From NCBI GenBank assembly GCA_964525635.1, contig CAZGJX010000003.1, positions 1 through 64,000 of the forward strand: 64,000 nt of DNA, given 5' to 3'. The translations under genes were made by a program, and so were the position numbers. A model generated the notes under the pieces. It ran no database searches. It was not told where the DNA came from and saw only the letters and a list, made by a program, of their open reading frames with translations. How positions within the stretch are numbered: the first letter of the stretch is position 1; each line of letters begins with the position of its first letter. This stretch comes from an uncultured archaeon. GTDB taxonomy: Archaea > Asgardarchaeota > Lokiarchaeia > Sigyniarchaeales > SOKP01. Shown here piece by piece: positions 4,344-51,945 of the stretch.

Positions 4344-5156
4344 ATGGATTGGGGAATGCATAATAGATTATCCCGAATAATCAAACCTAAATCTGGGCAT
4401 TGCGTGATGCTTGCAATCGATCATGGAAAATATGTATAATTAATTCATATTCATGAATATTTTGGCAATATCCCAGGAATGTTAAAATCTTTTAAAAAGT
4501 TAGAACCTCTCTTTCAATATGCAGATGCTTTAATGTTAACTCGAGGTATGCTCCGAAACTGTGTATCACCTGATATGGACGTCCCTATTGTTTTAAGAGT
4601 ATCTGCAGGTGCTAGTATGTTAAAAGAACTTTCCAATGAAGAAATAAATGTTACGATTGAAGATGCTATCAGATTAAATGTATCTGCAATTACTTGTTCA
4701 ATATTCGTTGGAGGGGAGTTTGAAAAACAAACCCTCCTAAATTTGACTAAACTTGTTAATTGGGGTCAAGAATATGGAATACCGGTCTTAGCAGTCACAG
4801 CTGTAGGTAGAGAGATGGTAAGAGATGCACGTTACTTAGGTATGGCAAGTCGAATGGCAGCAGAAATCGGAACGACTTTCGTAAAGACATATTATTGTGA
4901 GAATTTTGAAGATGTTACATCTATATGCCCAGTTCCTATTGTAATTGCGGGAGGTAAAAAGATTCCCGAGAAAGATGCATTGGAAATGTCTAGGAATGCT
5001 ATTGATAAAGGTGCTATCGGAGTTGATATGGGAAGGAACATTTTTCAATCAGATAGCCCAATAGGAATGATTCAAGCAGTTCGAGCAATAGTTCATGACA
5101 ATGTTACTGTTGATGATGCATATCAAATTTATCAAAATGGTCCAAAAGGACTATAG
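4344..5156 (+). CDS. lsrF: LsrF-like thiolase / class I aldolase (DhnA family); join(4344..4427,4458..5156), 260 aa after removing a 30-nt intron
   Basis: ATG at 4344 gives [28 protein letters not shown], the typical LsrF N-terminus, in frame with the 4479 ORF; motifs [21 protein letters not shown]. Confidence 0.9.
4428..4457 (+). other. candidate bulge-helix-bulge (BHB) intron in lsrF mRNA, 30 nt, with in-frame TAA
   Basis: GAT|CATG|GA^A|AATATG-loop-CATATT|CATG|AA^T|ATT: 4-bp central helix and two 3-nt bulges; cutting after the second bulge base joins GGA to TAT (DHG-YFG). Confidence 0.85.
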
Positions 5157-5876: not shown

Positions 5877-6926
5877 CTAATCCCTTTCAAAATCAATTAT
5901 TACCTTCATTGAATCATTAGCCTCACAAACTACGTTAAAGGCTTCTTGAATTTGTCGTAGTGGAAATCGATGAGAAATAATATCGGTCACTGAGATCCTG
6001 TTATTTGATATTAAATCATATGCTTCATCCAAATCAGTTGGTGCTGCTCCATAAGATGTCATAATAGTCACTTCATTACGCCAATAATCATTAATAGGGA
6101 TTTCAAGTTTAACTCCCGGTCTTGGTACTGCAAAAAATATAATGGTTGATCCTGGACCAACGCAATTTAACGCTTGATTCGCTGCTGATAATGCTCCCGT
6201 ACAGACAATAATGCAATCAGGCATTTTATTTTCGTTAAGATCTTTTATTTTAGATGGTATATCCTCTCTTGCATTAATTATTGCATCTGCTCCAAATTCT
6301 TTTGCCTGCTTTAATCGAGATTCACTTATATCAGTCATTATAACTTTATTTACTCCTTTTAATTTAGCTAATTTGAGATGTAATATTCCAGAAACACCAC
6401 TTCCTAATATTAATATAGTTTGTCCCTCTTTTATAGTAGCTAATCTCTGAGCTCTGCAAACGCATGCTAGAGGTTCGATTAATACTCCTTCTTCATAAGA
6501 CATAGAATCTTTTAGCACATAAACACCTTTTTTCTCTATATTAATATTAGGAATACGAATAAATTCAGCAAAACCTCCTGGATCGAAATTTGTATTATGT
6601 AATAGATGACATGCGGTATGATGACCCTGTTTACAATAATGACATTCAAAACATGGAACATGATGAGATACAAATACTTTATTACCCATTTTGATGTTCT
6701 TTACATTTTCTCCTATTTCTACTACTTCTCCAGCAATCTCATGACCCAATACTAGACTATCGAGACCCAACTTCTTCATTTTAGCAAATCTATAATATTC
6801 AAGAATATCAGATCCACAAATCCCTGATTTTTTTACTTCAACAAGAAATTCATCTGAATTGATTTTGGGTTTGAGCATTTCCTCAACTCTTACATCCTTA
6901 TTACTATAATATCTAGCGACTCTCAT
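5877..6926 (-). CDS. Zn-dependent medium-chain dehydrogenase (threonine/sorbitol dehydrogenase-like)
   Basis: GICGSD, GHE, CxxCxxC...C structural Zn site, GSGVSG Rossmann motif. Confidence 0.92.
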   Translation of the reverse strand: MRVARYYSNKDVRVEEMLKPKINSDEFLVEVKKSGICGSDILEYYRFAKMKKLGLDSLVLGHEIAGEVVEIGENVKNIKMGNKVFVSHHVPCFECHYCKQGHHTACHLLHNTNFDPGGFAEFIRIPNINIEKKGVYVLKDSMSYEEGVLIEPLACVCRAQRLATIKEGQTILILGSGVSGILHLKLAKLKGVNKVIMTDISESRLKQAKEFGADAIINAREDIPSKIKDLNENKMPDCIIVCTGALSAANQALNCVGPGSTIIFFAVPRPGVKLEIPINDYWRNEVTIMTSYGAAPTDLDEAYDLISNNRISVTDIISHRFPLRQIQEAFNVVCEANDSMKVIIDFERD

Positions 6927-19794: not shown

Positions 19795-22002
19795 ATGTCT
19801 GATAATAAAATTAAACAATATGAATATTATATTTCATATGGTAAATACCAAGAAGCACTCGAAATACTCAACTCAATTAAAGAAGAAAGAACTTTATCAG
19901 AAGATGAAACATTTTTAGTGCAATATTTGCATATTTTTATTTGTCTTGATAAAGGGGAATTTCAAAAAGGACGAGAACTCGCTGATGAGATGATAAAAGA
20001 ATGTAAGGAAAAAAATAATATTTTGCGGGAGTTAGATGCCCTTTTAGGAAAAATCGAAAATAGCATATGTTTAGGATTATTAGATGAGTCTTTTGATTTA
20101 ATACATATTGGAGAAATTTTACTAAACAAAATAAAATCTCCTTCATCTAATATTTCAAAACAAAAAGAAGGATATTTTGAGTTTTTAAAAGGACGTATTT
20201 ATGCTGAAAAATATGAATTATTTACGGCAATAGAACATTTTCAAAAAAGCTATGAATTAAGAAAAGAGGTTGAGGATAAAGCAGGATTAATTTTCTCTTT
20301 ATTAAATTTGGGGGTATCAAATGGTAGTATCGGTAATTTCAGAGACGCTAGAAAATACTCTAAACAAAGTCTAGTTATAGCAGAAGAATTAGATGTAGAA
20401 GTAGGAATTATTTGGAATTTAATTAATTTGGGTGGTGTTGAATATCATTTAAGAAATTTAGATGATGCTATTTCATTTGCAGAAAAATGTTTAAAGATTT
20501 GTGAACCAAAAGATTATAAACATTCATCTACCTTATGCTATGATATTATTGGACATAGTTTATTTGAAAAAGGAGATTTGGATCAAGCATTACAATATTT
20601 TAAAAAGAGTTTAGATTATAGATTAAAAACGGGTTATATGAATTTAATAGCTCAATCTTATTTTAGTATAGGTAATGTTTATAATCAAAAGGGAGAGCTT
20701 AAACGGAGTTTAGAATATTATAATAAAATACTTAAAATACCGGAGGTTCAAGAAGATCAGAGATCTAAACCAGCATATTTAACCTCAATTGGAAAAATCT
20801 ATGGTGAATTAGGTGATTTCACTACAGCTAAACGATATTTACTAGAAGCATTAGATTTACTAAAGGACATAAAAGTACATATTTTTTATTTCCTAAATTT
20901 CAAAGTATCATTAGCTAAAATATATCATTATTTAATAGATTTTGCGGTAAATAATAATGAATTTGATAATTTAGATCGCTATTTAACGGAATTAAAAGAA
21001 CTCAGTAATAAATATACAGATTTAAAGCAAATTGAACAATTATATCGGTTAAATAAAGCAATAATTTTAAAATCAAGTGATCGTTTAATGGATAAAATGG
21101 AAGCAGGATCTATCTTTAAGGGAATTGCTGAGGAAGAAATCCTTGATCATGAAATCACTATTGAAGCAATGACGAATCTATGTGATGTTTTACTAAGTGA
21201 ACTTGAATTAACGGGAGACAAAAGAATTCTTGGAGAAATAGAAGATTTATCAGACAAATTATTATTTATCTCAAAAAATCAATATTTATATGATGTATTA
21301 GCAGAAACATATTTCTTTAAAGCAAAAATATCCTTGCTCCATTTAGATATCAATAATACACGTTTATTATTGACAAAGGCTCAAAATACTGCTAATAAAT
21401 ATGGTCTATGGCATTTAGCTAATAAAATTTCAAATGAACATGATACTTTATTAACTCATTTGGATGAGTGGGAACAGAAAATTAAGGAAAACATTCCATT
21501 ACAAGAAAGACTTGATAATGTTAGTCATGAATTTTTATTTTCAAAAATGGTTCGATCTAATATTAATGAGGTAGAGGAAGAGACTGATCTTCCAGTATAT
21601 CTCTTAGTTCTAAATGCACATAATGGAGAATGTTTATTTAGTAAATCTTTTCAAGATAGTGAGATTGATGACAGTGAGCTTATTGCAGGATTTATTTCAG
21701 CGATCAATTTATTTGGGAAAGAAGCTTTTGCTTCGTCAGGTTCTATTGATCGTATTAAGCATGGAGAACATTTAATAATTCTTCAATCAAGAGAGGCTTT
21801 TCTATTTGGTTATGTATTTAAAGGACAATCATATACTGCAATTTCTAAATTAAATAATTTTATAGACATTTTAGCTATTTCTACAAATAATTTTAAAAAT
21901 CTATTAGAATCGATTCAACATAACCAAGAGATAACTCACGAAATTCTATCAGTTATTAATCAACTCATTCAAAGAATTTTCATGCTTAATAAGGTTTTCT
22001 AA
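19795..22002 (+). CDS. TPR-repeat protein with C-terminal longin-like domain, copy 1
   Basis: About 40-aa TPR-like repeats; C-terminal LIAGFISAINLFGKE...IDRIKHG...FGYVFKG. Confidence 0.9.
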   Translation: MSDNKIKQYEYYISYGKYQEALEILNSIKEERTLSEDETFLVQYLHIFICLDKGEFQKGRELADEMIKECKEKNNILRELDALLGKIENSICLGLLDESFDLIHIGEILLNKIKSPSSNISKQKEGYFEFLKGRIYAEKYELFTAIEHFQKSYELRKEVEDKAGLIFSLLNLGVSNGSIGNFRDARKYSKQSLVIAEELDVEVGIIWNLINLGGVEYHLRNLDDAISFAEKCLKICEPKDYKHSSTLCYDIIGHSLFEKGDLDQALQYFKKSLDYRLKTGYMNLIAQSYFSIGNVYNQKGELKRSLEYYNKILKIPEVQEDQRSKPAYLTSIGKIYGELGDFTTAKRYLLEALDLLKDIKVHIFYFLNFKVSLAKIYHYLIDFAVNNNEFDNLDRYLTELKELSNKYTDLKQIEQLYRLNKAIILKSSDRLMDKMEAGSIFKGIAEEEILDHEITIEAMTNLCDVLLSELELTGDKRILGEIEDLSDKLLFISKNQYLYDVLAETYFFKAKISLLHLDINNTRLLLTKAQNTANKYGLWHLANKISNEHDTLLTHLDEWEQKIKENIPLQERLDNVSHEFLFSKMVRSNINEVEEETDLPVYLLVLNAHNGECLFSKSFQDSEIDDSELIAGFISAINLFGKEAFASSGSIDRIKHGEHLIILQSREAFLFGYVFKGQSYTAISKLNNFIDILAISTNNFKNLLESIQHNQEITHEILSVINQLIQRIFMLNKVF

Positions 22003-22172
22003 TATATTTCATATAAATTTATACTTAACTACCTTATCAATTATAAAATTTCATGTAAAATAATTTTACATTTATTTTAAGTTAAGAATATATTCTTAAA
22101 TTATAATATATTATCAATTTTAGATTCCAAGATGTAAATTGTATAATTATTAATATTTAAGAAAAAAAAATA

Positions 22173-24401
22173 ATGTCTGATAATCAGTTTAATCAAATTA
22201 ATCACTTTATTTCAAATGGTAAATTTCAACAAGCATTAGAAATTATTAATTCAAATAAGAAAAAGCGGATATTACCAGAGGATGGGTCCTTGTTGAAAAT
22301 GTATATAGAGATCTTTATCCATCTAGATAAAGGAGATTTTAAAAAGGGATCTAAAATTGCCGATGAAATGATAAGTGAGAGTCAAAAAAAAGAGAATTTT
22401 TTGCGAAAAATTGATGCTATTACGGGTAAAATCGAAAATATTATAAATTTAGGATTATATCAAGAATGTTTTAACTTAATTAAATATGGAAAATCCATTT
22501 TAAAGAATTTAAAAAATGTTTCAATGGAAAAAATAAAGGAAAAAGAAGCATATTTAATTTTTCTTAAGGGAAGAATTTATGCAGAACAATTTGATGTAAA
22601 TCAGGCATTAAAATTATTCCAACAAAGTGTTGAAATTAGAAGAGAAATTAATGATAAAACAGGTTTGATATTTTCTCTATTAAATTTGGGAAGAGCAAAT
22701 GGTAGTATTGGAAATCTTGATATTGCTAGAAAATATTTTAAGGAAAGTTTAGCTATTGCAGAAGAATTGGATAATGAAGTTGGAATATTATGGAATTTGA
22801 TTGATTTAGGAGGAATAGAATATCATTTAAGGAATTTAGAGAGATCGATATCCTATGCAAAAAGATGTCTTTTAATTAGTGAAGTGAAAGGCTATAAAAA
22901 AACTAATGCATTTTGTTATGACATTATAGGTCATTGTCACAATTCCAAGGGAGAATTGAATGAATCATTAATCTACTTTCAAAAAAGCTTAGATCTAAGG
23001 ATAGAAATAGGATATAATAACTTGATAGCTCAATCTTATTTTAGTATAGGTAATGTTTATAGTCAAAAAGGAGAGCTTCAGCGCAGTTTAGCATATTATG
23101 ATAAAATTTTAGAAATACCAGATATTAAGAAAGATCAGGTCTCTAAACCAGCTTATTTAACAACAATTGGTAAAATCCATGGAGATCTAGGTAATTTCTT
23201 CAAAGCAAAGAAATATCTTTTGGAAGCTTTAGATTTATTAAAAGAGAAAAATGTTCAAATATTCTATTTCTTAAATTTTAAAGTTTCTATCGCTAAAATC
23301 TATCATTATCTAATAACTATTTCCATAAATAATAAAGAATTCAAATCCTTGAATGAATATTTAGAAGAATTGTATTACATTAAAACAAAATATAAACAAC
23401 TCAAACAAATTGAACAATTATATAGACTAGATAAAGCGATAATTCTGATGTCAAGTGACCGTTTAATGGATAAAATGGGTGCCGAAACTATTCTTAAGGA
23501 GATTACTGAGCAAGAGATAATCGATTATGAAATTACAATAGAATCAATGAAGCATTTATGTGAAATGTTAATATATGAATTAGAATTAACTGGAGATGAA
23601 AAAATTATCCAAGAAATAGATATTCTTTCCGATAAATTAATTAATGTTTCTCAATCTCAATACTTATATGATCTTTCGGCAGAAACTTATTTATTTAAAG
23701 CTAAGATATCATTATTGCTTTTAGATCTTAATAGTGCAAGATTATTATTAACAATGGCTCAAAAGACTGCAAATATACATGGATTAAAAAGATTAGCATC
23801 TAAAATATCGAATGAACATGATTCATTATTAGCACATATGGAAGAGTGGGAAGAAAAAATAAAACAAAACATTCCATTAAGGGAAAGGTTGAAGACTAAT
23901 AGAAAAGAATTTCTATTTTCAGAGATGGTTAGATATAAATTCAAACAATTACCACATGAAGTTGATAATCCAGTTTATATTGTTATTTTAAGTCCTTATG
24001 ATGGTCATTGTCTTTATAGTAGAGCATTCAAAGATATAAGTCTTGATGATGGAGATCTTATCTCAGGTTTTATTTCAGCAATTAATATATTTGGGAAAGA
24101 AGCTTTTTCTTCTTCGGGTTCGATTGATCGAATAAAGCATGGTGATTATTTGATAGTCTTTCAATCCAAAGAACGAATTTTATTTGGATATGTATTTAAA
24201 GGAAACTCTTATTCAGCAATTTCTAAATTAAGGAATTTTATTGAAATAATTTCGACTTTTAAAAATCTGTCTGAAATATTTAATTTTTCATTGCTTAGCC
24301 ATAGTGAAATTTCAAAAGAAACTAAATTTACAGTTAATCAATTGGTTGATAAGATTTTTCTAACAAATGAAAAATTACTTTTGAACAATGATAATGACTA
24401 A
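22173..24401 (+). CDS. TPR + longin-like protein, copy 2
   Basis: Full-length paralogue of copy 1. Confidence 0.9.
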   Translation: MSDNQFNQINHFISNGKFQQALEIINSNKKKRILPEDGSLLKMYIEIFIHLDKGDFKKGSKIADEMISESQKKENFLRKIDAITGKIENIINLGLYQECFNLIKYGKSILKNLKNVSMEKIKEKEAYLIFLKGRIYAEQFDVNQALKLFQQSVEIRREINDKTGLIFSLLNLGRANGSIGNLDIARKYFKESLAIAEELDNEVGILWNLIDLGGIEYHLRNLERSISYAKRCLLISEVKGYKKTNAFCYDIIGHCHNSKGELNESLIYFQKSLDLRIEIGYNNLIAQSYFSIGNVYSQKGELQRSLAYYDKILEIPDIKKDQVSKPAYLTTIGKIHGDLGNFFKAKKYLLEALDLLKEKNVQIFYFLNFKVSIAKIYHYLITISINNKEFKSLNEYLEELYYIKTKYKQLKQIEQLYRLDKAIILMSSDRLMDKMGAETILKEITEQEIIDYEITIESMKHLCEMLIYELELTGDEKIIQEIDILSDKLINVSQSQYLYDLSAETYLFKAKISLLLLDLNSARLLLTMAQKTANIHGLKRLASKISNEHDSLLAHMEEWEEKIKQNIPLRERLKTNRKEFLFSEMVRYKFKQLPHEVDNPVYIVILSPYDGHCLYSRAFKDISLDDGDLISGFISAINIFGKEAFSSSGSIDRIKHGDYLIVFQSKERILFGYVFKGNSYSAISKLRNFIEIISTFKNLSEIFNFSLLSHSEISKETKFTVNQLVDKIFLTNEKLLLNNDND

Positions 24402-24601
24402 ATAATAATAATCCTAAAATTGTAAAGATTTATAAAGAAAAATGAATAAATAATTAACTTTTTCCTAAATTACTCTACATAAACATAATTTTATATAATC
24501 AAAAAAAAATATATAATCATAATAAAATTAATAATAGGTTTATTAAATCTGAATCTAAAACTTATTATTTTCTTTAAGAGAATTATTAATAAAAGAATCT
24601 T

Positions 24602-26809
24602 ATGGTAAATAACCAATATAATCAAATAGAATTCTTAATTTCAATTGGCAAATATTCTCAAGTCCTAGAATTATTTAAATCTCTTGAAATAACAAGAACA
24701 TTATCAGATGATGAATCCTTGCTTAAAATGTATGTTCAGGTCTTTATTTATCTTGATAAAGGAGATTTTCAAAAAGGGGTGGATTTAGCTGATAAGATGA
24801 TAAAACAAAGTAAAAATCAAAATAATTCTTTACGTGAAATTGATGCTATTCTTGGTAAAATTGAAAATAGCATTTGTTTAGGATTATTTAATGAATCTTT
24901 TGATTTAATAAATAATGGAGAAATTCTATTGAAAAAATTAAACAATCAATCATCTGAAAGTATAAAAAAAAGAGATGCTTATCTGAAATTTTTAAAGGGT
25001 CGAATTTATAATGAAAAATATGATATGTTTAATGCGGTAGAATATTTCGAAAAAAGCTACGTATTAAGAAAAGAAATTGGTGATAAATTTGGATTAATCT
25101 TTTCTTTATTGAATTTAGGAGTAACTACAGGTAGTATTGGAAACATGAAAGAAAATAGAGAATATTCTAAACAAAGTTTATCTCTAGCAGAAGAACTGAA
25201 AGTTGAAATGGGCGTTATTTGGAATTTAATTAATCTAGGGGGAATTGCATATCATTTAAGAGATCTAAATGATGCGGTCTCATACGCAGAGAGATGTCTT
25301 AGAATTTGTGAGCCAAAAGAATATAAACATTCATGTACATTATGTTATGATATTATTGGACATAGTTTATTTGAAAAAGGGGATTTAGACAAAGCATTAC
25401 AATACTTTAAAAAGAGTTTAGATTATAGATTAAAAACAGGATTTAAAAATTTAATCGCTCAATCATATTATAATATTGGAAGGATCTATAATCAAAAGGG
25501 TGAACTTCAACGCAGTCTAGAATACTTAAATAAGATTTTTAAAATACCTGAGGTTCAAGAAGACCAAAGATCCAGACCCGCTTATTTAACATCTATAGGT
25601 AAGATTTATGGAGAATTAGGTGATTTTACAACTGCTAAGAAATATTTATTTGAAGCTTTGGATTTATTAAAAGATGTTAAAGTTCATATTTTCTATTTCT
25701 TGAATTTTAAAGTAAATAAGTCTAAGATTTATCATTATTTAATACAATTCTCTATAAATAATAATGAATTTGATAAATTAGATCATTATTTAAATGAATT
25801 ATTTCAATTGAGTAAAGAGAATCCGGAATTAAAACAGATCGAACAATTATATCGACTAAATAAAGCAATCATCTTAAAATCAAGTAATCGTTTAATGGAT
25901 AAAATGGAAGCAGGTATTATTTTTAGGGAAATTGCTGAAGAAGAAATTCTTGATCATGGAATTACTGTTGAAGCTATGACAAATTTATGTGACGTTTTAA
26001 TAAAGGAATTAGAATTAACTGGAGAAAAGAATATACTAGAGGTTATTGAAGAATTATCAGATGAATTACTTTCATTATCTAAAAATCAACATCTACATCA
26101 TGTATTAGCAGAAACATATTTTTTTAAAGCAAAATTGTCTCTACTTCATTTAGATATAGAAAATACACGTTTATTTTTAACAAAAGCTCAAAATACTGCA
26201 AATAAGTATGGTTTATGGCGTTTAGCAAGTAAATTATCTGATGATCATGACTCTTTATTAGTGCATATGGATAAATGGGAGGAAAAGATTAAGCAAAACA
26301 TTCCTTTACAACAAAGACTTGGAAATATTAGTTACGATTTCTTATTCTCAAAAATGGTTAGAACTAATATAGATATGATATCTAAAGAATCGGAAATTCC
26401 CGTATATTTCCTAATTTTTGAAATGAATGTTAAAGAATGTATATATATTAAATCATTTCAGGATAAAAATGTTGATGATAAAAGCGTTTTAAAAAACTTT
26501 ATTTCATATATTAAAACCCTCAAGAAAGAAATATTTCGTTCTTCTGATTCTATTGACCGGTATAAACATGGAGATAATTTAATGATTATTAATTTAAAAG
26601 AAAATTTCATATTTGCATATGTTTTTAGAGGGAAATCTTATTTTGCAATCTCTAGATTTAACAATTTTATAGAAATATTGGAAATTTCTACAATTAATTT
26701 TAAAAAAATATCAACATCAATTCATAAAAATAACAATTTATCAGAAGAAGTTCTTCAAATTATTGACCAATTAGTTGAAAGAATTTTTATTTTAAATATA
26801 ATTATTTGA
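24602..26809 (+). CDS. TPR + longin-like protein, copy 3 (divergent C-terminal domain)
   Basis: Full-length paralogue; centre nearly identical to copy 1. Confidence 0.9.
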   Translation: MVNNQYNQIEFLISIGKYSQVLELFKSLEITRTLSDDESLLKMYVQVFIYLDKGDFQKGVDLADKMIKQSKNQNNSLREIDAILGKIENSICLGLFNESFDLINNGEILLKKLNNQSSESIKKRDAYLKFLKGRIYNEKYDMFNAVEYFEKSYVLRKEIGDKFGLIFSLLNLGVTTGSIGNMKENREYSKQSLSLAEELKVEMGVIWNLINLGGIAYHLRDLNDAVSYAERCLRICEPKEYKHSCTLCYDIIGHSLFEKGDLDKALQYFKKSLDYRLKTGFKNLIAQSYYNIGRIYNQKGELQRSLEYLNKIFKIPEVQEDQRSRPAYLTSIGKIYGELGDFTTAKKYLFEALDLLKDVKVHIFYFLNFKVNKSKIYHYLIQFSINNNEFDKLDHYLNELFQLSKENPELKQIEQLYRLNKAIILKSSNRLMDKMEAGIIFREIAEEEILDHGITVEAMTNLCDVLIKELELTGEKNILEVIEELSDELLSLSKNQHLHHVLAETYFFKAKLSLLHLDIENTRLFLTKAQNTANKYGLWRLASKLSDDHDSLLVHMDKWEEKIKQNIPLQQRLGNISYDFLFSKMVRTNIDMISKESEIPVYFLIFEMNVKECIYIKSFQDKNVDDKSVLKNFISYIKTLKKEIFRSSDSIDRYKHGDNLMIINLKENFIFAYVFRGKSYFAISRFNNFIEILEISTINFKKISTSIHKNNNLSEEVLQIIDQLVERIFILNIII

Positions 26810-27107
26810 TGAATTTCTTATTTTTTAAATATAGGAAATCAATTCTAAATTATATTTATATAAGGAAATCATAAATAACATATTATCTGAAAAATGGAAT
26901 CGACTAAATAATAAAATTCTTAAATATATATACAAACATTAAAAAAAAAAGAAAAATTAGAATTGAAGTTCTTGATTCCTATATATATCCAAAATTATAT
27001 ATATATTTAATAAGATTATTTAATCGTAGTTTAATGAAAAGTATCTTTAATAAATTCAATAATATAACAGGAAATTCATAATTAAAAATCTTCAAATTAA
27101 TACACTC

Positions 27108-29321
27108 ATGTCTAATAGTATATTTAATCAAATAGAACAACATATCTCTTTTGGAAAATATTCCCAAGCTTTGGAATTATTAAATTCAATTGAAAAAGAA
27201 AGATCTTTATCAGAAGAGGAATATTTATCAAAACAATATGTCGAAATCTTTATATTATTAGATAAAGGAGATTTTCAAAAGGGTTGCGACCTTGCTGATG
27301 AGATGATAAAAAATTGTAAAAAGCTAAAAAATGGTTTAAGAGAGATAGATGCTATTATTGCAAAGACCGAAAATAGTAATTGTTTAGGATTTTTTAAAGA
27401 ATCGCTTAAATCAATAGAGGAAGCGGAATTTATCCTCAAGAATTTAAAAAAAATATCACCAAATGTTAGAAAACAAAAACAAGCATATCTAATTTATCTA
27501 AAAGGAAGAATATTTCGAGATTCTCACAATGTTTTTGATGCTATTAAATTATTAAAAAAAAGTTATGAATTAAGAAAAGAAATAAATGATAAATTTGGAA
27601 TGATGTGGTCTTTATTAAATTGGGCCTCCATCATTACCGCCATTGGAAATTTTAAAAGTGCAGAAAGATATTTTAATGAAAGTCTGTCAATAGCAGAAGA
27701 ATTAGACATTGAGGAGGGAAGAATATGGAATTTAATTTATTTAGGATGGTTAAAGTACCATTTAAGAGACTTGAATACTGCAATTTCTTATGCTCAAAAA
27801 TCTCTCTCTATTTGTGAACCGCAGAATTATTATTATCCAATTACAAGATGTTATGATCTTATTGGACATTGTTTTCTAATAAAGGGAGATGTAAATAAAG
27901 CTCTTTCTTTCTTTCAAAAAAGTCTAGAGATAAGAATAAAAATAGGTTATAATAGCTATATTGCTCAGTCTTATTTCAGTATTGGAAAAGTATACAGTCA
28001 AAAAGGTGAACTAACGCAGAGTCTAGATTATTTTAATAAAACCTTGCAAATGTCTAAAATTGAAGATAGGCAAATGTCTAAACCAACTTATTTAAGTGCT
28101 GTGGGTAAAATTTATGGAGAATTAGGTGACTTCCCCACAGCTAAGAAATATTTGTTAGAAGCATTAGATTTGTTAAAAAAGAAACAAATGTTTTTATTTC
28201 AATTTTTAAATTTTAATGTATCTATAACAACAACTCTTCATTATTTGATTGTTCTCTCTATAAATAATAACGATCTTGAAAATATTGATGAGTATCTAAA
28301 TATGTTAGAATATTTATCTCAAAAATATCCTAAGGTTGAACTAATTAAACAAGTATTTCTTTTAGATAAAGGAATCACTTTAAAATCTAGTAATCGATTA
28401 ATGGATAAAGTGGAAGCAGGTGCTATCTTTAAAGAGATTATTGAAGAAAAAATAATTGATTATGAAATAACAATTGAAGCAATGACAAATCTTTATGAAG
28501 TATTAATGTATGAGTTAGAAATAACAGGTGATAATGAAATACTTGAAGATATAGAAAAACTTTCTGATAAAATGCTTGAAATTGCAAAATCCCAACAATT
28601 ATTCGCTTTGTTAGCGGAAACCTTCTTTTTAAAGGCAAAAATCTCATTATTACATTTAGAAATCCATAATGCACGGTTATTATTAACAAAAGCTCAAAAT
28701 ATAGCTAAAAAACATGGACTGAAAAGATTAGCAAATAAAATTTCAAATGAACATGATTCTCTTTTGTCTCATATAGATGAATGGGAAGAAAAAATTAAAA
28801 ATGATGTCCCTTTATCAGAAAGGATAAATGGTTCTAAATATGAATTCTTATTCTCAAAAATGGTTCGTTCTAAAATTGAAGAAATAGAATATGAAGCAGA
28901 AAATCCAGTTTATCTAATTATACTTAATCCCAACGATGGGCGATGTATATATAACCAATCATTCCAAAAGATCGGTATCGCTGATGCTAATCTTATCTCA
29001 AGTTTTATATCAGCAATTAATATTTTTGGAAAAACCACATTTTCATCTTCAGGATCAATAGATAGGATAAAACATGGAGACTATATGATAATTGTTCAAA
29101 TCAAAGACAATTTTTTATTTGCATATGTCTTTAAGGGAAAATCCTATTCTGCTGCATCTAGATTAAAGAAATTTATAAAATTTCTATCAAAACAAAAAAA
29201 GTTTCTTGAAAGTTTAAAATTATCTGTTAAAAATTTTACCACAATTTCAGATAGAGATTTTTCCAAGCTTAATAAATTAGTTAATGAGATCTTTATAATG
29301 AAAAAAAATATTCAGGAATAA
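27108..29321 (+). CDS. TPR + longin-like protein, copy 4
   Basis: Full-length paralogue. Confidence 0.9.
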   Translation: MSNSIFNQIEQHISFGKYSQALELLNSIEKERSLSEEEYLSKQYVEIFILLDKGDFQKGCDLADEMIKNCKKLKNGLREIDAIIAKTENSNCLGFFKESLKSIEEAEFILKNLKKISPNVRKQKQAYLIYLKGRIFRDSHNVFDAIKLLKKSYELRKEINDKFGMMWSLLNWASIITAIGNFKSAERYFNESLSIAEELDIEEGRIWNLIYLGWLKYHLRDLNTAISYAQKSLSICEPQNYYYPITRCYDLIGHCFLIKGDVNKALSFFQKSLEIRIKIGYNSYIAQSYFSIGKVYSQKGELTQSLDYFNKTLQMSKIEDRQMSKPTYLSAVGKIYGELGDFPTAKKYLLEALDLLKKKQMFLFQFLNFNVSITTTLHYLIVLSINNNDLENIDEYLNMLEYLSQKYPKVELIKQVFLLDKGITLKSSNRLMDKVEAGAIFKEIIEEKIIDYEITIEAMTNLYEVLMYELEITGDNEILEDIEKLSDKMLEIAKSQQLFALLAETFFLKAKISLLHLEIHNARLLLTKAQNIAKKHGLKRLANKISNEHDSLLSHIDEWEEKIKNDVPLSERINGSKYEFLFSKMVRSKIEEIEYEAENPVYLIILNPNDGRCIYNQSFQKIGIADANLISSFISAINIFGKTTFSSSGSIDRIKHGDYMIIVQIKDNFLFAYVFKGKSYSAASRLKKFIKFLSKQKKFLESLKLSVKNFTTISDRDFSKLNKLVNEIFIMKKNIQE

Positions 29322-29581
29322 ATCATATATAAGACTTCTAAATTCATAAAGAAACTGTAACTAATTCTTTATTTATATTTTTTCTCTTCACTATCCCAAA
29401 TTTTTATTCAAATCCAAGATTTTTTAAATACTATTTTAAATTAAATAATTGTATTTAAGTAAATATCAGTTTATAATTATCATCAAATAAAGGTAATATT
29501 TGTATACATTATTATGATTTTTAAGAAGATTAGAAAACTGAAGTTGGATTTTTATTAATTCTAATATTATAATTATAAATT

Positions 29582-31789
29582 ATGTCAAGTAAACAGCGTC
29601 AGGAAATAAATAATTATATTAGTTGTGGAAAATATATTGAAGCTTTAGAAATTATAAGTTCAATTGAGAAAGAGCGATCATTAGTAGACGATGAAATTTT
29701 ACTTAAAAATTATATTCAGATATTTAAATACATTGATGAAGGAGAATTTCAAAAAGGAATAGATTGTGCTGATGAATTAATAAAAGAAAGTAAAGAAAAA
29801 AGAAATTTCTTATATGAATTAGATGCGATTATAGGAAAAATAGAAAATATTATTAATTTGGGTTCAATTGAGGAGGCTCTTAAATTAATTAAAAATGGAG
29901 TAAAGTTATTAAGAAAAATCAAAGGAATTCCTATAATAGAATTAAAAAAAAGAGACGCTCATTTAATTTTCCTAAAGGGACGTATTTACCAGAATAGATT
30001 AGATCTTATTGAAACATTAGAGTTATATAAACAGAGTTTAGGAATAAGGAAAGAAATAGATGACAAATTTGGATTAATATGGTCTCAATTAAACTTAGGG
30101 ACACTAATGATAACCACAGGAGATTTTAAAGAAGCTGAAAAATATATAAATGGTAGTTTAGAGATAGCTAAGGAATTAAATAATAATGTTGGAATTATTT
30201 GGAATCTCATCAACTTAGGATGGATTAAATATCATAAAAGAGAGATAAAAAGTGCTTTATCTTTTATAAAAGAATGTTTTGAAATTAGTGAATTAAAAAA
30301 ATATAAATATCCTCTTACTTTATGTTATGATTTAACAGGTTCTTGTCACCTTGTTAAAGGTAATCTAAATAAAGCATTATTTTTCTTTCTAAAAAGTCTT
30401 TATATAAGAATAAAAATGAAAAATAATAATCTTATGATAATCTCTTATTATGATATTGGAAATGTTTATAGCCGAAAAGGTGAGCTCAAACGTAGTTTAG
30501 ATTATTATAATAAAGGTTTAAGTATTCCTATATATGATAAAAGAAAAATCTTTAAACCTACATATTTAAGTGTCATGGGTAAAATTTATGGACAACTCGG
30601 TGATTTTGCTACTGCTAAGACGTACTTATTGGAAGCATTAAATTTACTAAAAGATAAAAAAGTATTTATCTATCATCATTTAAATTTTTCATCTTCAATA
30701 ACTAAAACACTCCATTATTTGATTATACTATGCATGAATAATAATGAAATCGAAAGTGCAAATAATTATTTAGAGGAATTAAAAAAATTAAGTGTTGAAT
30801 ATCCAAGAATGAAACTAATTAAACAAGTATATAGATTAGATAGAGCAATCTTCTTAAAATCGAGCATTCGTTTAATGGATAAAATGGAATCTTGGACAAT
30901 TTTTAAAGGAATTATTGAAGATTCAGAAATTAATGATTATGAAATTACTATTGAAGCTATGACAAATTTATGTGAAATTCTGATATATGAATTAGAATTA
31001 ACAGGAGATAAAGATATTTTACAGGAAATAGAAGAACTTTCTGATAAATTACTTGAAATAGCAAAATCTCAGTATTTACATAACTTATTGGCAGAAACCT
31101 ATTTTTTTAAAGCAAAAATATCCTTATTAAATTTGGATATAGACAATACACGCTACTTATTAACAAAAGCTCTGAAAATAGCATTTAAATATGATCTGAA
31201 ACAATTAGCGAAAAAAATTTCAAATGAGCATGATTCATTATTGGTCCATTTGGATGAATGGGAAGAAAAAATTAAAAGAAAAATACCATTTTTGGAACGA
31301 ATTGAGAATATAAAACATGAATTTTTATTTTCAGCAACTGGAAGAGCTCAGATGGAAGATTTATCAATTCAAAATGATAATCCTATATATTTTGTAATTT
31401 TAAGTTCTTTCAATGGAAGATGCATATTTAGTAAAACATTTCAAGATATTAGTGTTAATGATGGTAATCTAATAGCTTCCTTTATTTCAGCTATTAACTT
31501 ATTTGGTAAGGAAGCATTTTCATCTTCGGGTACAATTGATAGAATTAAACATGGGGAATATCTAATAGTTCTTCAATCTAAAGAGGATTACATTTTTGGT
31601 TATGTATTTAAAGGACAATCATATTCAGCGATTTCAAAATTAGAGTCATTTATAGATCAATTAGAACAATTAACTGATAGTTTCAATATTTTAAATGTAT
31701 ATATAAAAAGTCATCGGGAAATCTCAATAGAAATTCGTTCTGATATTGAAAAGTTAGTTGATAAAGTACTGGTTTATAAAAGTAAATAA
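29582..31789 (+). CDS. TPR + longin-like protein, copy 5
   Basis: Full-length paralogue. Confidence 0.9.
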   Translation: MSSKQRQEINNYISCGKYIEALEIISSIEKERSLVDDEILLKNYIQIFKYIDEGEFQKGIDCADELIKESKEKRNFLYELDAIIGKIENIINLGSIEEALKLIKNGVKLLRKIKGIPIIELKKRDAHLIFLKGRIYQNRLDLIETLELYKQSLGIRKEIDDKFGLIWSQLNLGTLMITTGDFKEAEKYINGSLEIAKELNNNVGIIWNLINLGWIKYHKREIKSALSFIKECFEISELKKYKYPLTLCYDLTGSCHLVKGNLNKALFFFLKSLYIRIKMKNNNLMIISYYDIGNVYSRKGELKRSLDYYNKGLSIPIYDKRKIFKPTYLSVMGKIYGQLGDFATAKTYLLEALNLLKDKKVFIYHHLNFSSSITKTLHYLIILCMNNNEIESANNYLEELKKLSVEYPRMKLIKQVYRLDRAIFLKSSIRLMDKMESWTIFKGIIEDSEINDYEITIEAMTNLCEILIYELELTGDKDILQEIEELSDKLLEIAKSQYLHNLLAETYFFKAKISLLNLDIDNTRYLLTKALKIAFKYDLKQLAKKISNEHDSLLVHLDEWEEKIKRKIPFLERIENIKHEFLFSATGRAQMEDLSIQNDNPIYFVILSSFNGRCIFSKTFQDISVNDGNLIASFISAINLFGKEAFSSSGTIDRIKHGEYLIVLQSKEDYIFGYVFKGQSYSAISKLESFIDQLEQLTDSFNILNVYIKSHREISIEIRSDIEKLVDKVLVYKSK

Positions 31790-32057
31790 AAAATTAACAA
31801 ATAAGAATCTCTTTTTCATAATAAGTAGATCTGTAGTCAAAATGGAGAAATTATATGATATATTCAATCTCTAAATCTTATAAAAAATCTGAAATCCAAG
31901 ATTTTTTATAGTCTTTATTTGTTTATATAATCATAAGAACTAAAACTTGGTCAAACAAGTTCATTTATATAAGGTTTTTACATTCTTATCATTCAATAGC
32001 TATTTAATAAGAAATAACTTTAACACAATTTTTCATCGTTAAAAAAAAACACCAATA

Positions 32058-34256
32058 ATGTCTAATAACAAATTAACCGAAATAGAACATTTAGTTCTAC
32101 ATGGAAAATATCAACAAGCATTAAAAATCCTAAATTCAGTTGAAAAAAAGAGAACTATAACAGATGATGAAATGTTAATGAAGTTATATTTAATGATTTT
32201 TGTGCATCTTGATAAAGGTGAATTTCAAAAAGGACGAGATCTTGCTGATGAGATGTTAAAAATTTCAAAGGAACAGAATAATAAATTGCGGATGATTGAT
32301 TCTTATATTGGGAAAACTGAAAATACAATATGTTTAAGCTTTTATGAAGAGTCATCTAATACCATTCAAATTGCGGAAAAACTCTTAGAAAAATTAGAAG
32401 ATGAAACTTTGCAGGAATATAAACATAGAAAGGCTTACTTGAAATTTTTAAAAGCAAGAATTTATCAAGATTCACATGAAATCATTAAAGCAACAGAATT
32501 ATTTGAACAAAGTTATGAATTAAGAAAGCAAATAAATGATAAGTTTGGAATGTTGTTCACTTTATTAAATTGGGGTATTTCAACAACGGCTATTGGAGAT
32601 TTTAAAACGGGTGAAAAATACCTAAATAAGAGTCTAAATATTGCAAAAGAATTAAATAATGAAATAGGAATTATTTGGAATATCGTATATTCTGGTTGGA
32701 TTAAATATCATCTAGGGGATCTAGATACAGCAATTTCTCACGCAAAAGAAGGACTTTCGATATGTGAGCCAAAGAATCTTGATTATTCAATAACTCATTG
32801 TTATGATCTTCTTGGAAATTGTTATCTTGTTAAGGGTGATTTAAAAAAAGCATTATCTTATTTCGAGAGAAATTTAGAATTTAGATTAAAGCAAGGATAT
32901 AACAATTTAATAACTCAGTCTTATTATAGCATTGGAAATGTATATTATCAGAAGGGTGAACTTAAGAGAAGTTTATCATATTACAATAAAATATTAAAAA
33001 GTCCTGAGGTTAAAGAAGACACAATATCTAAACCAACATATTTAAGCACAATTGGTAAAATTTATGGAGAACTCGGAGATTTTGAAACTGCTAAAAAGTT
33101 CCTATTGGAAGCATTAGATTTACTACGAAAGAGGAAAATATTTATTTATCATTATTTAAATTTTGATATTTCAATAGCAAAAACAATTCATTATTTAATT
33201 GTCCTCTCAGTAAATAATAATGATTTTGAAAATCTCAATCATTTATTAGAAGAATTGCATAAATTAAGCGATCAATTTCCTAAATTCAAACAAATCAGGC
33301 AATTATATCGGTTAGATAAAGCTATTATTTTAAAATCAAGTAACCGATTAATGGATAAAATGGAAGCATGGACAATCTTTAAAGGAATTGCTGAAGAAGA
33401 TATAAATGATCATCAAATAACAATTGAAGCTATGACAAATCTGTGTGAATTACTGATATATGAATTAGAATTAACGGGAAATAACAGTTTATTAAAGAAT
33501 ATAGAAGAACTTTCAGATGAATTATTAATCATTGCAAAATCCCAATACCTCTATAATTTAATGGTTGAGACCTATTTTTTTAAAGCAAAATTGTCTTTAT
33601 TAAATTTGAATATAAAGGATGCACGGCTATTATTAACAAAAGCGCAAAAAATTGCGAAAGACCATGATTTAAATCGATTAGCAAAAAAAATATCAAATGA
33701 ACATGATTCTTTATTGGTTCATATAGATGATTGGGAAGAAATGATTAGAAAAAAGATCCCTCTACAGGAAAGAGTAAATTATTCTAGACATGAATTTCTT
33801 TTTTCTAAAATGATCAGATCTAAAATTGAAAGGACACCAATTGAAAAGGATATACCCGTATATATCGTAATACTTTACCCTTATGATGGTCGTTGTTTAT
33901 ATAGTAAAGCTTTTCAAGATATTAGTATTAACGATGGTAATCTTATAGCAAGCTTTATTTCCGCTATTAATCTATTTGGTAAAGAAGCTTTATCTTCTTC
34001 AGGTTCAATTGATCGTATCAAACATGGTGATTTTTTGATCATTCTTCAACCCAAAGAAAAATTATTATTTGGATATGTATTCAAGGGGCAATCCTATTTC
34101 GCAAAAACTAAATTAGATAATTTTATCGAATTTTTATTAAATTCAACTAATTGTTTTAAAGTTTTAGAAGAATCCATACATAATCATCTTGAAATCTCAG
34201 AAGAAACTCGCTTAGAAATTGAAAAAATAGTACAACAAATTATTTTAAAAAATTAA
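32058..34256 (+). CDS. TPR + longin-like protein, copy 6
   Basis: Full-length paralogue. Confidence 0.9.
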   Translation: MSNNKLTEIEHLVLHGKYQQALKILNSVEKKRTITDDEMLMKLYLMIFVHLDKGEFQKGRDLADEMLKISKEQNNKLRMIDSYIGKTENTICLSFYEESSNTIQIAEKLLEKLEDETLQEYKHRKAYLKFLKARIYQDSHEIIKATELFEQSYELRKQINDKFGMLFTLLNWGISTTAIGDFKTGEKYLNKSLNIAKELNNEIGIIWNIVYSGWIKYHLGDLDTAISHAKEGLSICEPKNLDYSITHCYDLLGNCYLVKGDLKKALSYFERNLEFRLKQGYNNLITQSYYSIGNVYYQKGELKRSLSYYNKILKSPEVKEDTISKPTYLSTIGKIYGELGDFETAKKFLLEALDLLRKRKIFIYHYLNFDISIAKTIHYLIVLSVNNNDFENLNHLLEELHKLSDQFPKFKQIRQLYRLDKAIILKSSNRLMDKMEAWTIFKGIAEEDINDHQITIEAMTNLCELLIYELELTGNNSLLKNIEELSDELLIIAKSQYLYNLMVETYFFKAKLSLLNLNIKDARLLLTKAQKIAKDHDLNRLAKKISNEHDSLLVHIDDWEEMIRKKIPLQERVNYSRHEFLFSKMIRSKIERTPIEKDIPVYIVILYPYDGRCLYSKAFQDISINDGNLIASFISAINLFGKEALSSSGSIDRIKHGDFLIILQPKEKLLFGYVFKGQSYFAKTKLDNFIEFLLNSTNCFKVLEESIHNHLEISEETRLEIEKIVQQIILKN

Positions 34257-34442
34257 AAAGAAATATTTAAGGACTTCATATTTAATAATTAGACTTTTTC
34301 TTAATCCTAATAAAATAAAACAATTTTCATTTTCAATCCTTAATTATAAATAGATATTACTTACATAAATTGTATAGAATATATAAAATCGAATTATATT
34401 AGTTATTTCATTGATAAAATCAAAATTATTCTTGTAGTTGTT

Positions 34443-36638
34443 ATGTTTGATAAACAAGAGAATTTAATAGAGCAGTACATATCTTATGGTCAATTTCAAG
34501 AAGCTTTCGATGAAATTAATTCAATAGAAAAGAAGCGTCCTTTACTTGAAAATGAAATATTTCAAAGATATTATGTGAAAATTTTCCTAAATCTCGATAA
34601 AGGTGAATTTCAAGAAGGGTGGGATCTCGCTGATGAGATGATCGAAGAAACACATAGGAAAAATAAAAAGTTATATGAATTGGATGCGATTATAGGAAAG
34701 ATAGAGAATGGTATTTGTTTATCTAAATTTGAGGAATGCTTTGAGTTAATACAAAAAGCTGAGTATATTATCAATAGTCTAGATAATATATCTAAAAAAG
34801 AATTGAAACTAAGAAAAGGATATCTTACTTTTCTTAAAGGTAGAATATATCAAGAAACTCATGAAGTCTTTAAAGCATTAGAGTTTTATCAGAAAAGTTA
34901 TAAAATAAGAAAGGAAATCGGTGAAAAATCTGGTTTATTATGGTCTTTATTAAATTGGGGAATAGTAGCAAATTTTATCGGAGAATTTCAAGAAGCGGAA
35001 AAATGTCATAAGCAGAGTTTAGAAATAGCTGAAGAATTAAATAATGAATTAGGAATTATATGGAACCTCATATCTTTAGGGTGGATCAGTTATCATTTAA
35101 GAGATCTTAAACTAGCATTTTATTATGCAAAAAAAGTTCTTTCAATAAGTAAATTAAATGAATTTAAGTATATATTAACATATTGTTATGATTTACTAGG
35201 ATATTGTTATATTTTAGAAGGTAATTTACAAACAGCTTTAGATTATTTCCAAAAAAGTTTAATTGTCAGATTGGAAGAAGGATATACACATTTTCTTGCC
35301 CAATCTTATTATAACATTGGATTAATATATAGTCAAAAGGGAGAACTTAAAGAAAGTTTATATTATTTCAATAAAGGTTTAAAAACTCTCAATGTAAAAG
35401 ATGATTTTATATTTAAGCCAACTTATTTAATTGCTATGGGTAAAGTATATGGAGAGCTTGGTGATTACCCTACTGCAAAAAAATATTTGATAGAAGCTGT
35501 AGACTTACTAAATAAGAAAAATATAGTTTTATATCATTTTTTACCATTTCATGTATCATTCGCAAAAGCATTTCACTATTTAATTGTTCTTTCAATAAAT
35601 AATAATGATAAAGAAAATATTGATAATTATTTGACACAATTACATAATTTAAATAAAAAATATGAAAGGCTCAAATTAACTGACCAATTATATCGATTAG
35701 ATAAAGCAATAATATTAATTTCAAGTGGTCATCTAATAGAGATTATGAAAGCAGGAACAATATTAGAAGATATTATGAATGAAAAAATAATTGATCATGA
35801 TATTGTAATAGAAGCAATGATTAATCAATGTGATGTTCTATTAAAAGAGTTAGAAATGACAGGGAATGATGAAATATTAGATGAATTAACAGAAATCTCA
35901 GAGAGATTACTACAAATTTCTCAATCCCAATATTTATATGATTTATATTCGGAATCTTATTTATTAAAGGCTAAAATTTCATTATTAAATTTAGATATTG
36001 ATAATGCACGTTTATCTTTGACAAAAGCTCAAAAAATCGCAAATAAATATGATTTAAAATTATTAGCAAGTAAGATATCTAATGAACATGATTCTTTATT
36101 GCAGAATTTAGATGAATGGGAGGAAAAAGCTAAATTAAATATTCCATTACAAGAAAGGTTGAAAGATTCTAGATATGAATTCTTATTTTCAAAAATGATT
36201 AGATCAAAAATAGAAGAATTACCATCAGAAAAGGAGATACCAATCTATTTTGTCATTTTAAATAGTTACGATGGTCAATGTCTATATGAAAAAATGTTTG
36301 AAGATATACAGATAATGGATGGAAATCTAATAGCAGGATTTATTTCTGCAATCAATTTTTATGGAAAGGAGGCATTTTCATCATCAGGTTCAATTGATAG
36401 AATAAAACATGGGGATTATTTAATTATACTTAACTCAATAGAAAATTTTATTTTTGGATATGTATTTAAAGGTAATTCATTTTCTGCAATTAATAAAATG
36501 AATAAAACTATTGAAACATTACAATTATTTAATAGCACTTTTGAAGACTTAAATAAATCAATTCAAACTCACCTTGAAATATCTGAGGAAACTAAATCAT
36601 TTATTGATAAAAAAATCCAAGAAATATTTTTGTTATAA
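34443..36638 (+). CDS. TPR + longin-like protein, copy 7
   Basis: Full-length paralogue. Confidence 0.9.
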   Translation: MFDKQENLIEQYISYGQFQEAFDEINSIEKKRPLLENEIFQRYYVKIFLNLDKGEFQEGWDLADEMIEETHRKNKKLYELDAIIGKIENGICLSKFEECFELIQKAEYIINSLDNISKKELKLRKGYLTFLKGRIYQETHEVFKALEFYQKSYKIRKEIGEKSGLLWSLLNWGIVANFIGEFQEAEKCHKQSLEIAEELNNELGIIWNLISLGWISYHLRDLKLAFYYAKKVLSISKLNEFKYILTYCYDLLGYCYILEGNLQTALDYFQKSLIVRLEEGYTHFLAQSYYNIGLIYSQKGELKESLYYFNKGLKTLNVKDDFIFKPTYLIAMGKVYGELGDYPTAKKYLIEAVDLLNKKNIVLYHFLPFHVSFAKAFHYLIVLSINNNDKENIDNYLTQLHNLNKKYERLKLTDQLYRLDKAIILISSGHLIEIMKAGTILEDIMNEKIIDHDIVIEAMINQCDVLLKELEMTGNDEILDELTEISERLLQISQSQYLYDLYSESYLLKAKISLLNLDIDNARLSLTKAQKIANKYDLKLLASKISNEHDSLLQNLDEWEEKAKLNIPLQERLKDSRYEFLFSKMIRSKIEELPSEKEIPIYFVILNSYDGQCLYEKMFEDIQIMDGNLIAGFISAINFYGKEAFSSSGSIDRIKHGDYLIILNSIENFIFGYVFKGNSFSAINKMNKTIETLQLFNSTFEDLNKSIQTHLEISEETKSFIDKKIQEIFLL

Positions 36639-36913
36639 TTATTTATCTTTTTAAAAATAATATAATTTATATTCAATTAAAAAGTCCAACAATTATATTC
36701 TCTCATAAATACAATTCTTCATTAAAAAATTTTATATAAAAAAAAAAAAATCTAAATCCATAATTTTATATATAATATTGATTATTATTCGATTGTATTT
36801 GCATAATAATTAGGGATAACTAATATATTTTAACTAATTTCAAATTTGTATAATGAAAATTTGAAAAAATATCATTTAGTCATTATAAAAATTATTTAAT
36901 CTAAATAATAATT

Positions 36914-51773: not shown

Positions 51774-51945
51774 AACTTCTTTGATTATATATTGAAGCAG
51801 TAATTTTGTATATATTTTTTAAGACTATATCTTTGTAGGGAATATAAAACTGAAAAAAAAAGATTCAAAATTATTTGTTATAAAAAAATATATTTTACTA
51901 ATGATAATTTAATTTTTACAAAACTAATAAACATATAGCTATAAG

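Follow-up and report, generated by a model that had tools for sequence, protein, structure and literature searches.

The window, a 64,000-nt stretch of a contig from an uncultured archaeon of the Lokiarchaeia, carries on its forward strand an lsrF gene whose reading frame is interrupted close to its 5′ end. The gene opens with the ATG at 4344 and runs to the codons for Asp-His-Gly (DHG, 4419–4427), which are followed by ten extra codons that include a TAA stop. A preliminary description of the locus had proposed that these extra codons form a bulge-helix-bulge (BHB) intron of the kind removed by the archaeal splicing endonuclease EndA. The positions that it gave for the gene start, the DHG codons, the insert, the helices and the bulges all agree with the sequence base by base, and excision of 4428–4457, that is cuts after 4427 and 4457, indeed drops exactly 30 nt, rejoins DHG to YF and leaves a stop-free LsrF of 260 amino acids. 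The elements of the gene and of the predicted RNA fold are as follows:

4344..4427, + strand: lsrF exon 1 (28 codons, 84 nt), ending Asp26-His27-Gly28
4428..4457, + strand: predicted BHB mini-intron, 30 nt, phase 0, with an in-frame TAA at 4437–4439
4458..5156, + strand: lsrF exon 2 (codons 29–260 and stop), including the shortened ORF called from ATG 4479
4419..4421, + strand: exon helix h, 5′ strand, pairing with 4459–4461; weak and invariant, hence uninformative
4422..4425, + strand: central helix H, 5′ strand (exon), CATG
4426..4428, + strand: 5′ bulge, predicted cut after 4427
4429..4451, + strand: intron helix h′ and 5-nt loop, 4429–37 pairing with 4443–51 with one U-U mismatch
4452..4455, + strand: central helix H, 3′ strand (within the intron), reading CATG or CGTG among relatives, with pairing never lost
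4456..4458, + strand: 3′ bulge, predicted cut after 4457

Against the NCBIfam LsrF profile (NF006081) the rejoined protein scores 339 bits, above the curated cut-off, versus 297 bits for the exon-2 ORF alone; exon 1 matches profile positions 32–61 and the downstream ORF positions 73–288. An intron-less orthologue, ~86% identical, aligns over its full length with E. coli LsrF (E 1e-88) and, as expected of an LsrF thiolase, with the Asp57, Lys203 and Asp251 motifs in register. Through this alignment Asp26 and His27 of the window's LsrF correspond to E. coli Asp57, the proposed acid/base, and His58, a phosphate ligand (PMC2728841). Only two registers of excision restore DHGYFG, and the central helix forms in just one of them, the one with cuts after 4427 and 4457.

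No lsr partner genes were identified among the lsrF neighbours examined, and a promoter scan gave a result at chance level. A Zn-dependent dehydrogenase gene lies near lsrF on the opposite strand (5877–6926, −). Elsewhere in the window (19795–39103 and 49569–54141) there are eight tandem paralogues of ~735 aa, with two more past the trp genes; their N-termini are alike and they represent a large local expansion.

Fold of the insert and the splicing enzymes

The predicted cut sites follow the rule that BHB motifs are cleaved after the second base of each bulge (PMC2738675). The central helix consists of four Watson-Crick pairs, and the intron helix (4429–34/4446–51) extends to eight of nine pairs. 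In ViennaRNA calculations the central helix forms with a probability of ~0.99 and the exon helix with one of ~0.03, while the strict BHB lies 2.9 kcal/mol above the minimum free energy. The strict motif put forward in the preliminary description thus stands in part: its pairs and bulges can form, but it is not the minimum-energy fold and its exon helix is weak. In its behaviour the insert is closer to a relaxed BHB whose central helix is firm. When the insert was shuffled between the same exons, this structure arose in any of five registers at P=0.002, and the free-energy z-score of the 81-mer was 0.68, which is not significant. Since shapes loosely resembling a BHB often arise by chance (4–18 per lsrF gene), the evidence lies in the coincidence with the homology-defined junction and not in the shape alone. 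A group I or group II self-splicing intron was rejected, the insert being only 30 nt long and Rfam giving no match in the window.

The window's genome encodes an EndA alpha subunit with the Tyr/His/Lys motif, whose best match is PDB 3p1z/3ajv, the Aeropyrum alpha subunit. The genome also encodes a second, degenerate EndA subunit and RtcB, so that the host enzymes expected for a BHB intron are present: two EndA subunits, one of them with the catalytic motif, plus RtcB. Two-subunit EndA is reported to cleave relaxed motifs (PMC5829648). Splicing of the lsrF pre-mRNA would begin with folding of the central helix and the hairpin of the intron; EndA, probably in its two-subunit form, would cut after 4427 and 4457, and RtcB would presumably join the exons, from which full-length LsrF would be translated; on unspliced mRNA, translation would stop at TAA 4437. 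No near-identical intron-less protein, such as the assembly of a spliced transcript might have yielded, was found among the homologues or cluster members.

Inserts in relatives and in other genes

The comparison covered ~170 distinct orthologous lsrF loci. The identical insert is present in three other assemblies, and Promethearchaeota (Loki-type) relatives have ten distinct versions at the same position, which we call site A. Within the family the site-A insert occurs in six of 135 genomes, spread over three genera, and its distribution on the gene tree requires five changes, at least two of which are forced by strong branches. Such an alignment across related Asgard genomes had been named beforehand as a check on the intron, and it revealed patchy presence together with pairing that covaries. 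In the eight aligned site-A versions 97.7% of cells are paired, with three compensatory pairs, versus 22–56% in slid controls; for the intron helix 96% of alignment cells are paired, with compensatory changes at three pairs, and frequent A-U to G-U changes point to pairing at the RNA level. The fourth intron codon is an in-frame stop (TAA or TGA) in all eight, partly located in the loop, which may reflect common descent or selection for aborting the translation of unspliced mRNA. Pattern matches in two further genomes (G024 and G036) were taken as chance, as lsrF is uninterrupted in both.

BHB inserts occupy four positions in lsrF, all of them within or next to motifs for catalysis or phosphate binding:

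Site D, in Leu23: inserts of 30 and 39 nt
Site A, after Gly28: the window's 30-nt insert
Site B, after Gly194 (E. coli Gly226/227): inserts of 30–37 nt
Site C, inside Asp218 (E. coli Asp251): inserts of 30–32 nt

When 28 lsrF inserts were scored at the protein-restoring register, 26 had the full 4-bp central helix and the other two had three of the four pairs. Site C displays seven compensatory pairs, one of them between exon and intron. A single gene can hold up to three introns, with sites A, B and C occupied together in the lsrF of one genome, and no spliced frame contains any further lesion, even with three inserts. Purifying selection persists in both exons, with synonymous divergence near saturation: pN/pS in site-A carriers is 0.11 for exon 1 and 0.13 for exon 2, and 0.15 and 0.11 in intron-less genes.

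Three observations on these loci are recorded separately. The 30-nt site-B insert of L027 has no in-frame stop, so that unspliced mRNA would give ten extra residues in the phosphate-binding loop; an insert of this type escapes searches based on frameshifts or stops. Upstream of the three-intron lsrF, the Thg1 region (L205:334–932) is split into two ORFs (51 and 146 aa) that lie two bases apart, and possibly holds a further intron. Finally, a record labelled Thermoplasmata (L108) has an lsrF 75% identical to the Asgard genes, which would reflect either transfer or mis-binning.

Taken together, the insert displays what is expected of an archaeal BHB intron: the motif (with its weak exon helix), cuts that coincide with the homology-defined borders, and covariation. 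To judge from these comparisons it is very probably a true mRNA intron, with splicing itself predicted. The initial reading of the insert as an intron is upheld by ten versions with covariation, constraint on both exons and three more lsrF sites, and is further backed by the EndA and RtcB genes and by homology-confirmed inserts in further genes of this genome.

Three readings in which lsrF contains no intron fare poorly. Recoding by the ribosome, through stop read-through or a 30-nt bypass with no RNA splicing, might be suspected from an in-frame insert with a stop, a hairpin and CAT at both ends, reminiscent of the bypassing known from T4 gene 60. However, a CAT-to-CAT hop would yield D-H-E-Y although Gly28 is invariant (150/150 orthologues), the landing codon is CGT in three carriers, carriers differ in their stop codon (TAA or TGA), and the 32-nt inserts at site C split a codon and show exon-intron covariation in keeping with BHB geometry; we regard recoding as very unlikely. 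Equally improbable is a dead insertion, whether a local duplication or a DNA hairpin element, that has left lsrF a pseudogene or a split gene with a working 225-aa part. TCATG does occur on both sides, on which ground the preliminary description had entertained a duplication, and the 225-aa ORF opened by ATG 4479 scores above the NCBIfam cut-off by itself. But the helix strands at sites B, C and D are complements and not repeats, the site-A relatives retain pairing and not identity, and both exons are under purifying selection without second lesions, which refutes the duplication; moreover, the 225-aa part lacks Asp57 and His58, which sit in exon 1, and its Met is kept in only 3 of 150 orthologues. 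An assembly or sequencing artefact, likewise raised at the outset, comes to mind because the source is a metagenome-assembled genome, and is refuted by the identical insert in three independent assemblies and by diverged versions in nine other lineages, leaving it next to no probability.

The preliminary description had also supposed that apparently truncated genes may hide similar introns, and had named a genome-wide BHB scan as a check. By itself such a scan is barely informative: matches numbered 182 versus 163 for mirror decoys, with no overall excess, and we give no total intron count because a motif-only scan is too noisy. It is useful only in combination with homology. The 30- and 32-nt matches include eleven junctions in recognisable motifs, and in four genes the profile positions abut across the insert: MoCF-domain 66|67, Roc/Ras 63|64, EF-2 31|33 and AMP phosphorylase 165|167. 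The window's genome (G000) thus has at least four further inserts confirmed by homology, EF-2 included. For the cold-shock and ThiF candidates only the 3′ part has a confirmed profile match. ARAGORN also reported introns in the genome, but these were not plausible and were set aside. The inserts of 30 or 32 nt (loci L256–L261) and further scan matches in G000 are located at:

C151:5048 (+): EF-2
C109:3095 (−): AMP phosphorylase
C26:35491 (−): MoCF/CinA-type gene
C27:33768 (+): Ras/Roc GTPase
C71:3776 (−): cold-shock protein
C178:567 (+): ThiF/E1-like gene
C4:30193 (−): scan match in RNase HII motif
C6:7457 (+): scan match in iorB motif
C7:6422 (+): scan match in S27ae motif
C1:45743 (−): scan match in thioredoxin motif

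Nucleases, conversion tracts and probable homing

In two site-C carriers the lsrF 3′ end occurs twice, and a 380-aa ORF lies between the gene and the second copy. The product of this ORF has two LAGLIDADG motifs and matches a PHROG endonuclease (E 1e-19 to 1e-28). Pfam missed both site-C nucleases, but the Atlas neighbours are LAGLIDADG_3 throughout, and a PDB profile search also recognises the family. The modelled structure of a site-A nuclease resembles I-DmoI, bI3 and I-AniI in a fold search. A free-standing LAGLIDADG gene adjoins six of 20 intron loci versus none of 106 intron-less loci with both flanks covered (Fisher P 8e-6, with kin not being independent), and it lies downstream at the 3′ site C and upstream at site A (L134/L255). 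Only one of the ten site-A lineages has an adjoining nuclease. Near lsrF in the window's genome no free-standing nuclease was found, and the sole detected member of the family is on another contig (C4:1635–2780, L208). There it adjoins two tandem kinase/receiver genes, 71% identical, and no intron partner was found. In a partial locus (L187), where codons 1–58 are uncovered, a nuclease fragment is present but introns B and C are absent.

The association extends beyond lsrF. At seven of 30 nuclease loci a neighbour gene has a mini-intron in a recognisable motif, as judged by eye. In L228, L231 and L252 related nucleases lie beside a probable GH38 mannosidase gene that has the motif ETHWDRE and carries a 30–33-nt BHB insert, and in L228 and L231 a displaced old 5′ end terminates at the intron junction, the mirror image of the site-C layout. 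Inserts of 30–33 nt are likewise adjoined by related nucleases in L230 and L251, in a translational GTPase with the motif GHIDHG, and in L233. A DHG motif precedes introns in unrelated genes, namely LsrF (4419–4428), EF-2 (G000 C151:5039–5048) and the GTPase (L230, L251); it is possibly a target preference.

Sister alleles with and without introns carry traces of DNA exchange. Between the site-A locus L121 and its intron-less sister L122, 24 of 180 bases differ in codons 1–60 and one of 600 elsewhere. As L122 is evenly similar to its other sisters, it is L121 that gained the intron and its flanks as a foreign tract. The two loci are colinear. Divergence between the window and G001 is 6.7% in codons 1–60 and 20% further on, and none of 679 comparable intron-less pairs is as close; the shared tract suggests recent spread within the genus. 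Seven site-C carriers differ from close intron-less sisters by 3–9% mid-gene and by 17–26% in the 3′ exon. In G007 and G035 the displaced 3′ remnants best match the intron-less sister, with their own new exons ranking 89th and 120th; for the G001 remnant no intron-less donor was singled out. No displaced 5′ lsrF remnant was found beyond or upstream of the L255 site-A nuclease. The foreign 3′ exon and the match of the remnant therefore indicate that a cassette made up of the intron, a new 3′ end and the nuclease displaced the old end at site C. The site-C cassettes, each comprising the intron, a replacement 3′ exon, the LAGLIDADG gene and the displaced old 3′ end, span:

L109:2866–5190
L114:2868–5637
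L113:2893–5085

Co-converted flanking DNA, as collaborative homing predicts, is thus present. The conserved catalytic motif would be the probable target of a free-standing LAGLIDADG endonuclease that cleaves the intron-less lsrF site; the intron would make an allele uncuttable and would be copied, with flanking lsrF DNA, into cut intron-less alleles. Since there is no adjoining nuclease in the window, and since L121 and L122 are colinear, the intron does not require a nuclease gene next to it in order to persist or move, and for the same reasons the case for homing at site A is less direct than that for site C; we nevertheless consider a homing origin of the window's intron likely. The lsrF introns look like selfish homing passengers, not regulators, and the earlier suggestion that splicing regulates lsrF expression found no support, given the patchy spread, the conversion tracts and the adjoining nucleases.

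A real intron could instead have been gained by reverse splicing or by copying of a tRNA intron and been kept for regulation, with the nucleases as secondary visitors. This would agree with the lack of an adjoining nuclease in the window and in nine of ten site-A lineages, and with the stop at the fourth intron codon, kept in every aligned site-A version. The conversion tracts of ~200 nt around the intron and the displaced gene ends are, however, signatures of DNA-break repair, and presence in so few genomes with five gene-tree changes argues against a needed regulator. We therefore hold this origin to be unlikely, though less so than the readings without an intron. The account as a whole, in which a protein-spliced lsrF intron is a selfish or near-neutral passenger spread by collaborative homing, is very probably correct.

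Known systems and implications

The closest counterpart is the intron of cbf5 pre-mRNA in Desulfurococcales and Sulfolobales (Watanabe 2002; Yoshinari 2006; Yokobori 2009, PMC2738675). Like that of lsrF it is a short BHB intron in coding sequence, with cuts between bulge bases 2 and 3 that match homology borders and often with a relaxed motif requiring hetero-oligomeric EndA. In cbf5, unlike lsrF, the intron occupies a single ancient position and has passed down vertically, with losses, and its splicing has been shown by cDNA, whereas the lsrF introns interrupt a metabolic gene of an Asgard lineage at four positions, are patchy among sisters and predicted to be spliced, and would be recent horizontal gains with conversion tracts and linked nucleases. 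The preliminary description had taken cbf5 as the known archaeal mRNA BHB intron, but Haloferax volcanii HVO_1309 is another (Schwarz 2020, PMC7714728). It too is an mRNA substrate of the splicing endonuclease, with the intron in its 5′ UTR and the reading frame uninterrupted. As far as we searched, in literature to which subscription papers mostly do not belong, these two make up the archaeal mRNA BHB introns described.

Collaborative homing is described in phages for F-CphI with the psbA group I intron and in T3/T7-like phages (Zeng 2009; Bonocora and Shub 2009, as covered in PMC10448857). In that account, as in lsrF, a free-standing nuclease lies beside an ORF-less intron at its presumed target and both spread together. 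The phage intron is a self-splicing group I ribozyme, whereas in lsrF a 30-nt BHB intron, predicted to be host-spliced, lies in an archaeal chromosome, and the nuclease is a LAGLIDADG enzyme accompanied by a replacement gene end. At site C, where a LAGLIDADG ORF separates the gene from a duplicate of its C-terminal part, the layout resembles that of the free-standing homing endonucleases with duplicated gene ends of fungal mitochondrial cob and atp6 (PMC6279837), for which that source describes no mini-intron at the junction. LAGLIDADG-encoding BHB introns of archaeal rRNA (I-DmoI type) and Asgard tRNA introns share the splicing motif, and the fold predicted for the lsrF-linked nuclease matches I-DmoI, but in lsrF the intron sits in an mRNA and does not contain the nuclease gene. 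For Asgard tRNA introns repeated gains have been reported, with no general arrival route found, in a study of tRNA introns only (bioRxiv 10.64898/2026.10.13.758758).

More broadly, we think it probable that BHB mini-introns are recurrent and currently mobile mRNA introns in this Loki-type Asgard family, which nucleases drive into the catalytic motifs of many genes before dropping away, and that at least a dozen mRNAs, essential ones among them, need tRNA-splicing enzymes. If so, gene calls in these genomes would be systematically wrong (truncated LsrF, EF-2, E1-like and other proteins), skewing metabolic and phylogenomic inferences, and the arrival of BHB introns would become testable, with named nucleases, predicted targets and sister alleles with and without the intron. 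The lsrF-type introns are not spliceosomal, and no ancestry to spliceosomal introns is implied. Protein genes with multiple introns in a lineage near the eukaryotes would show that the spread of introns is tolerable for a prokaryote whose translation is coupled and whose splicing system is protein-only.
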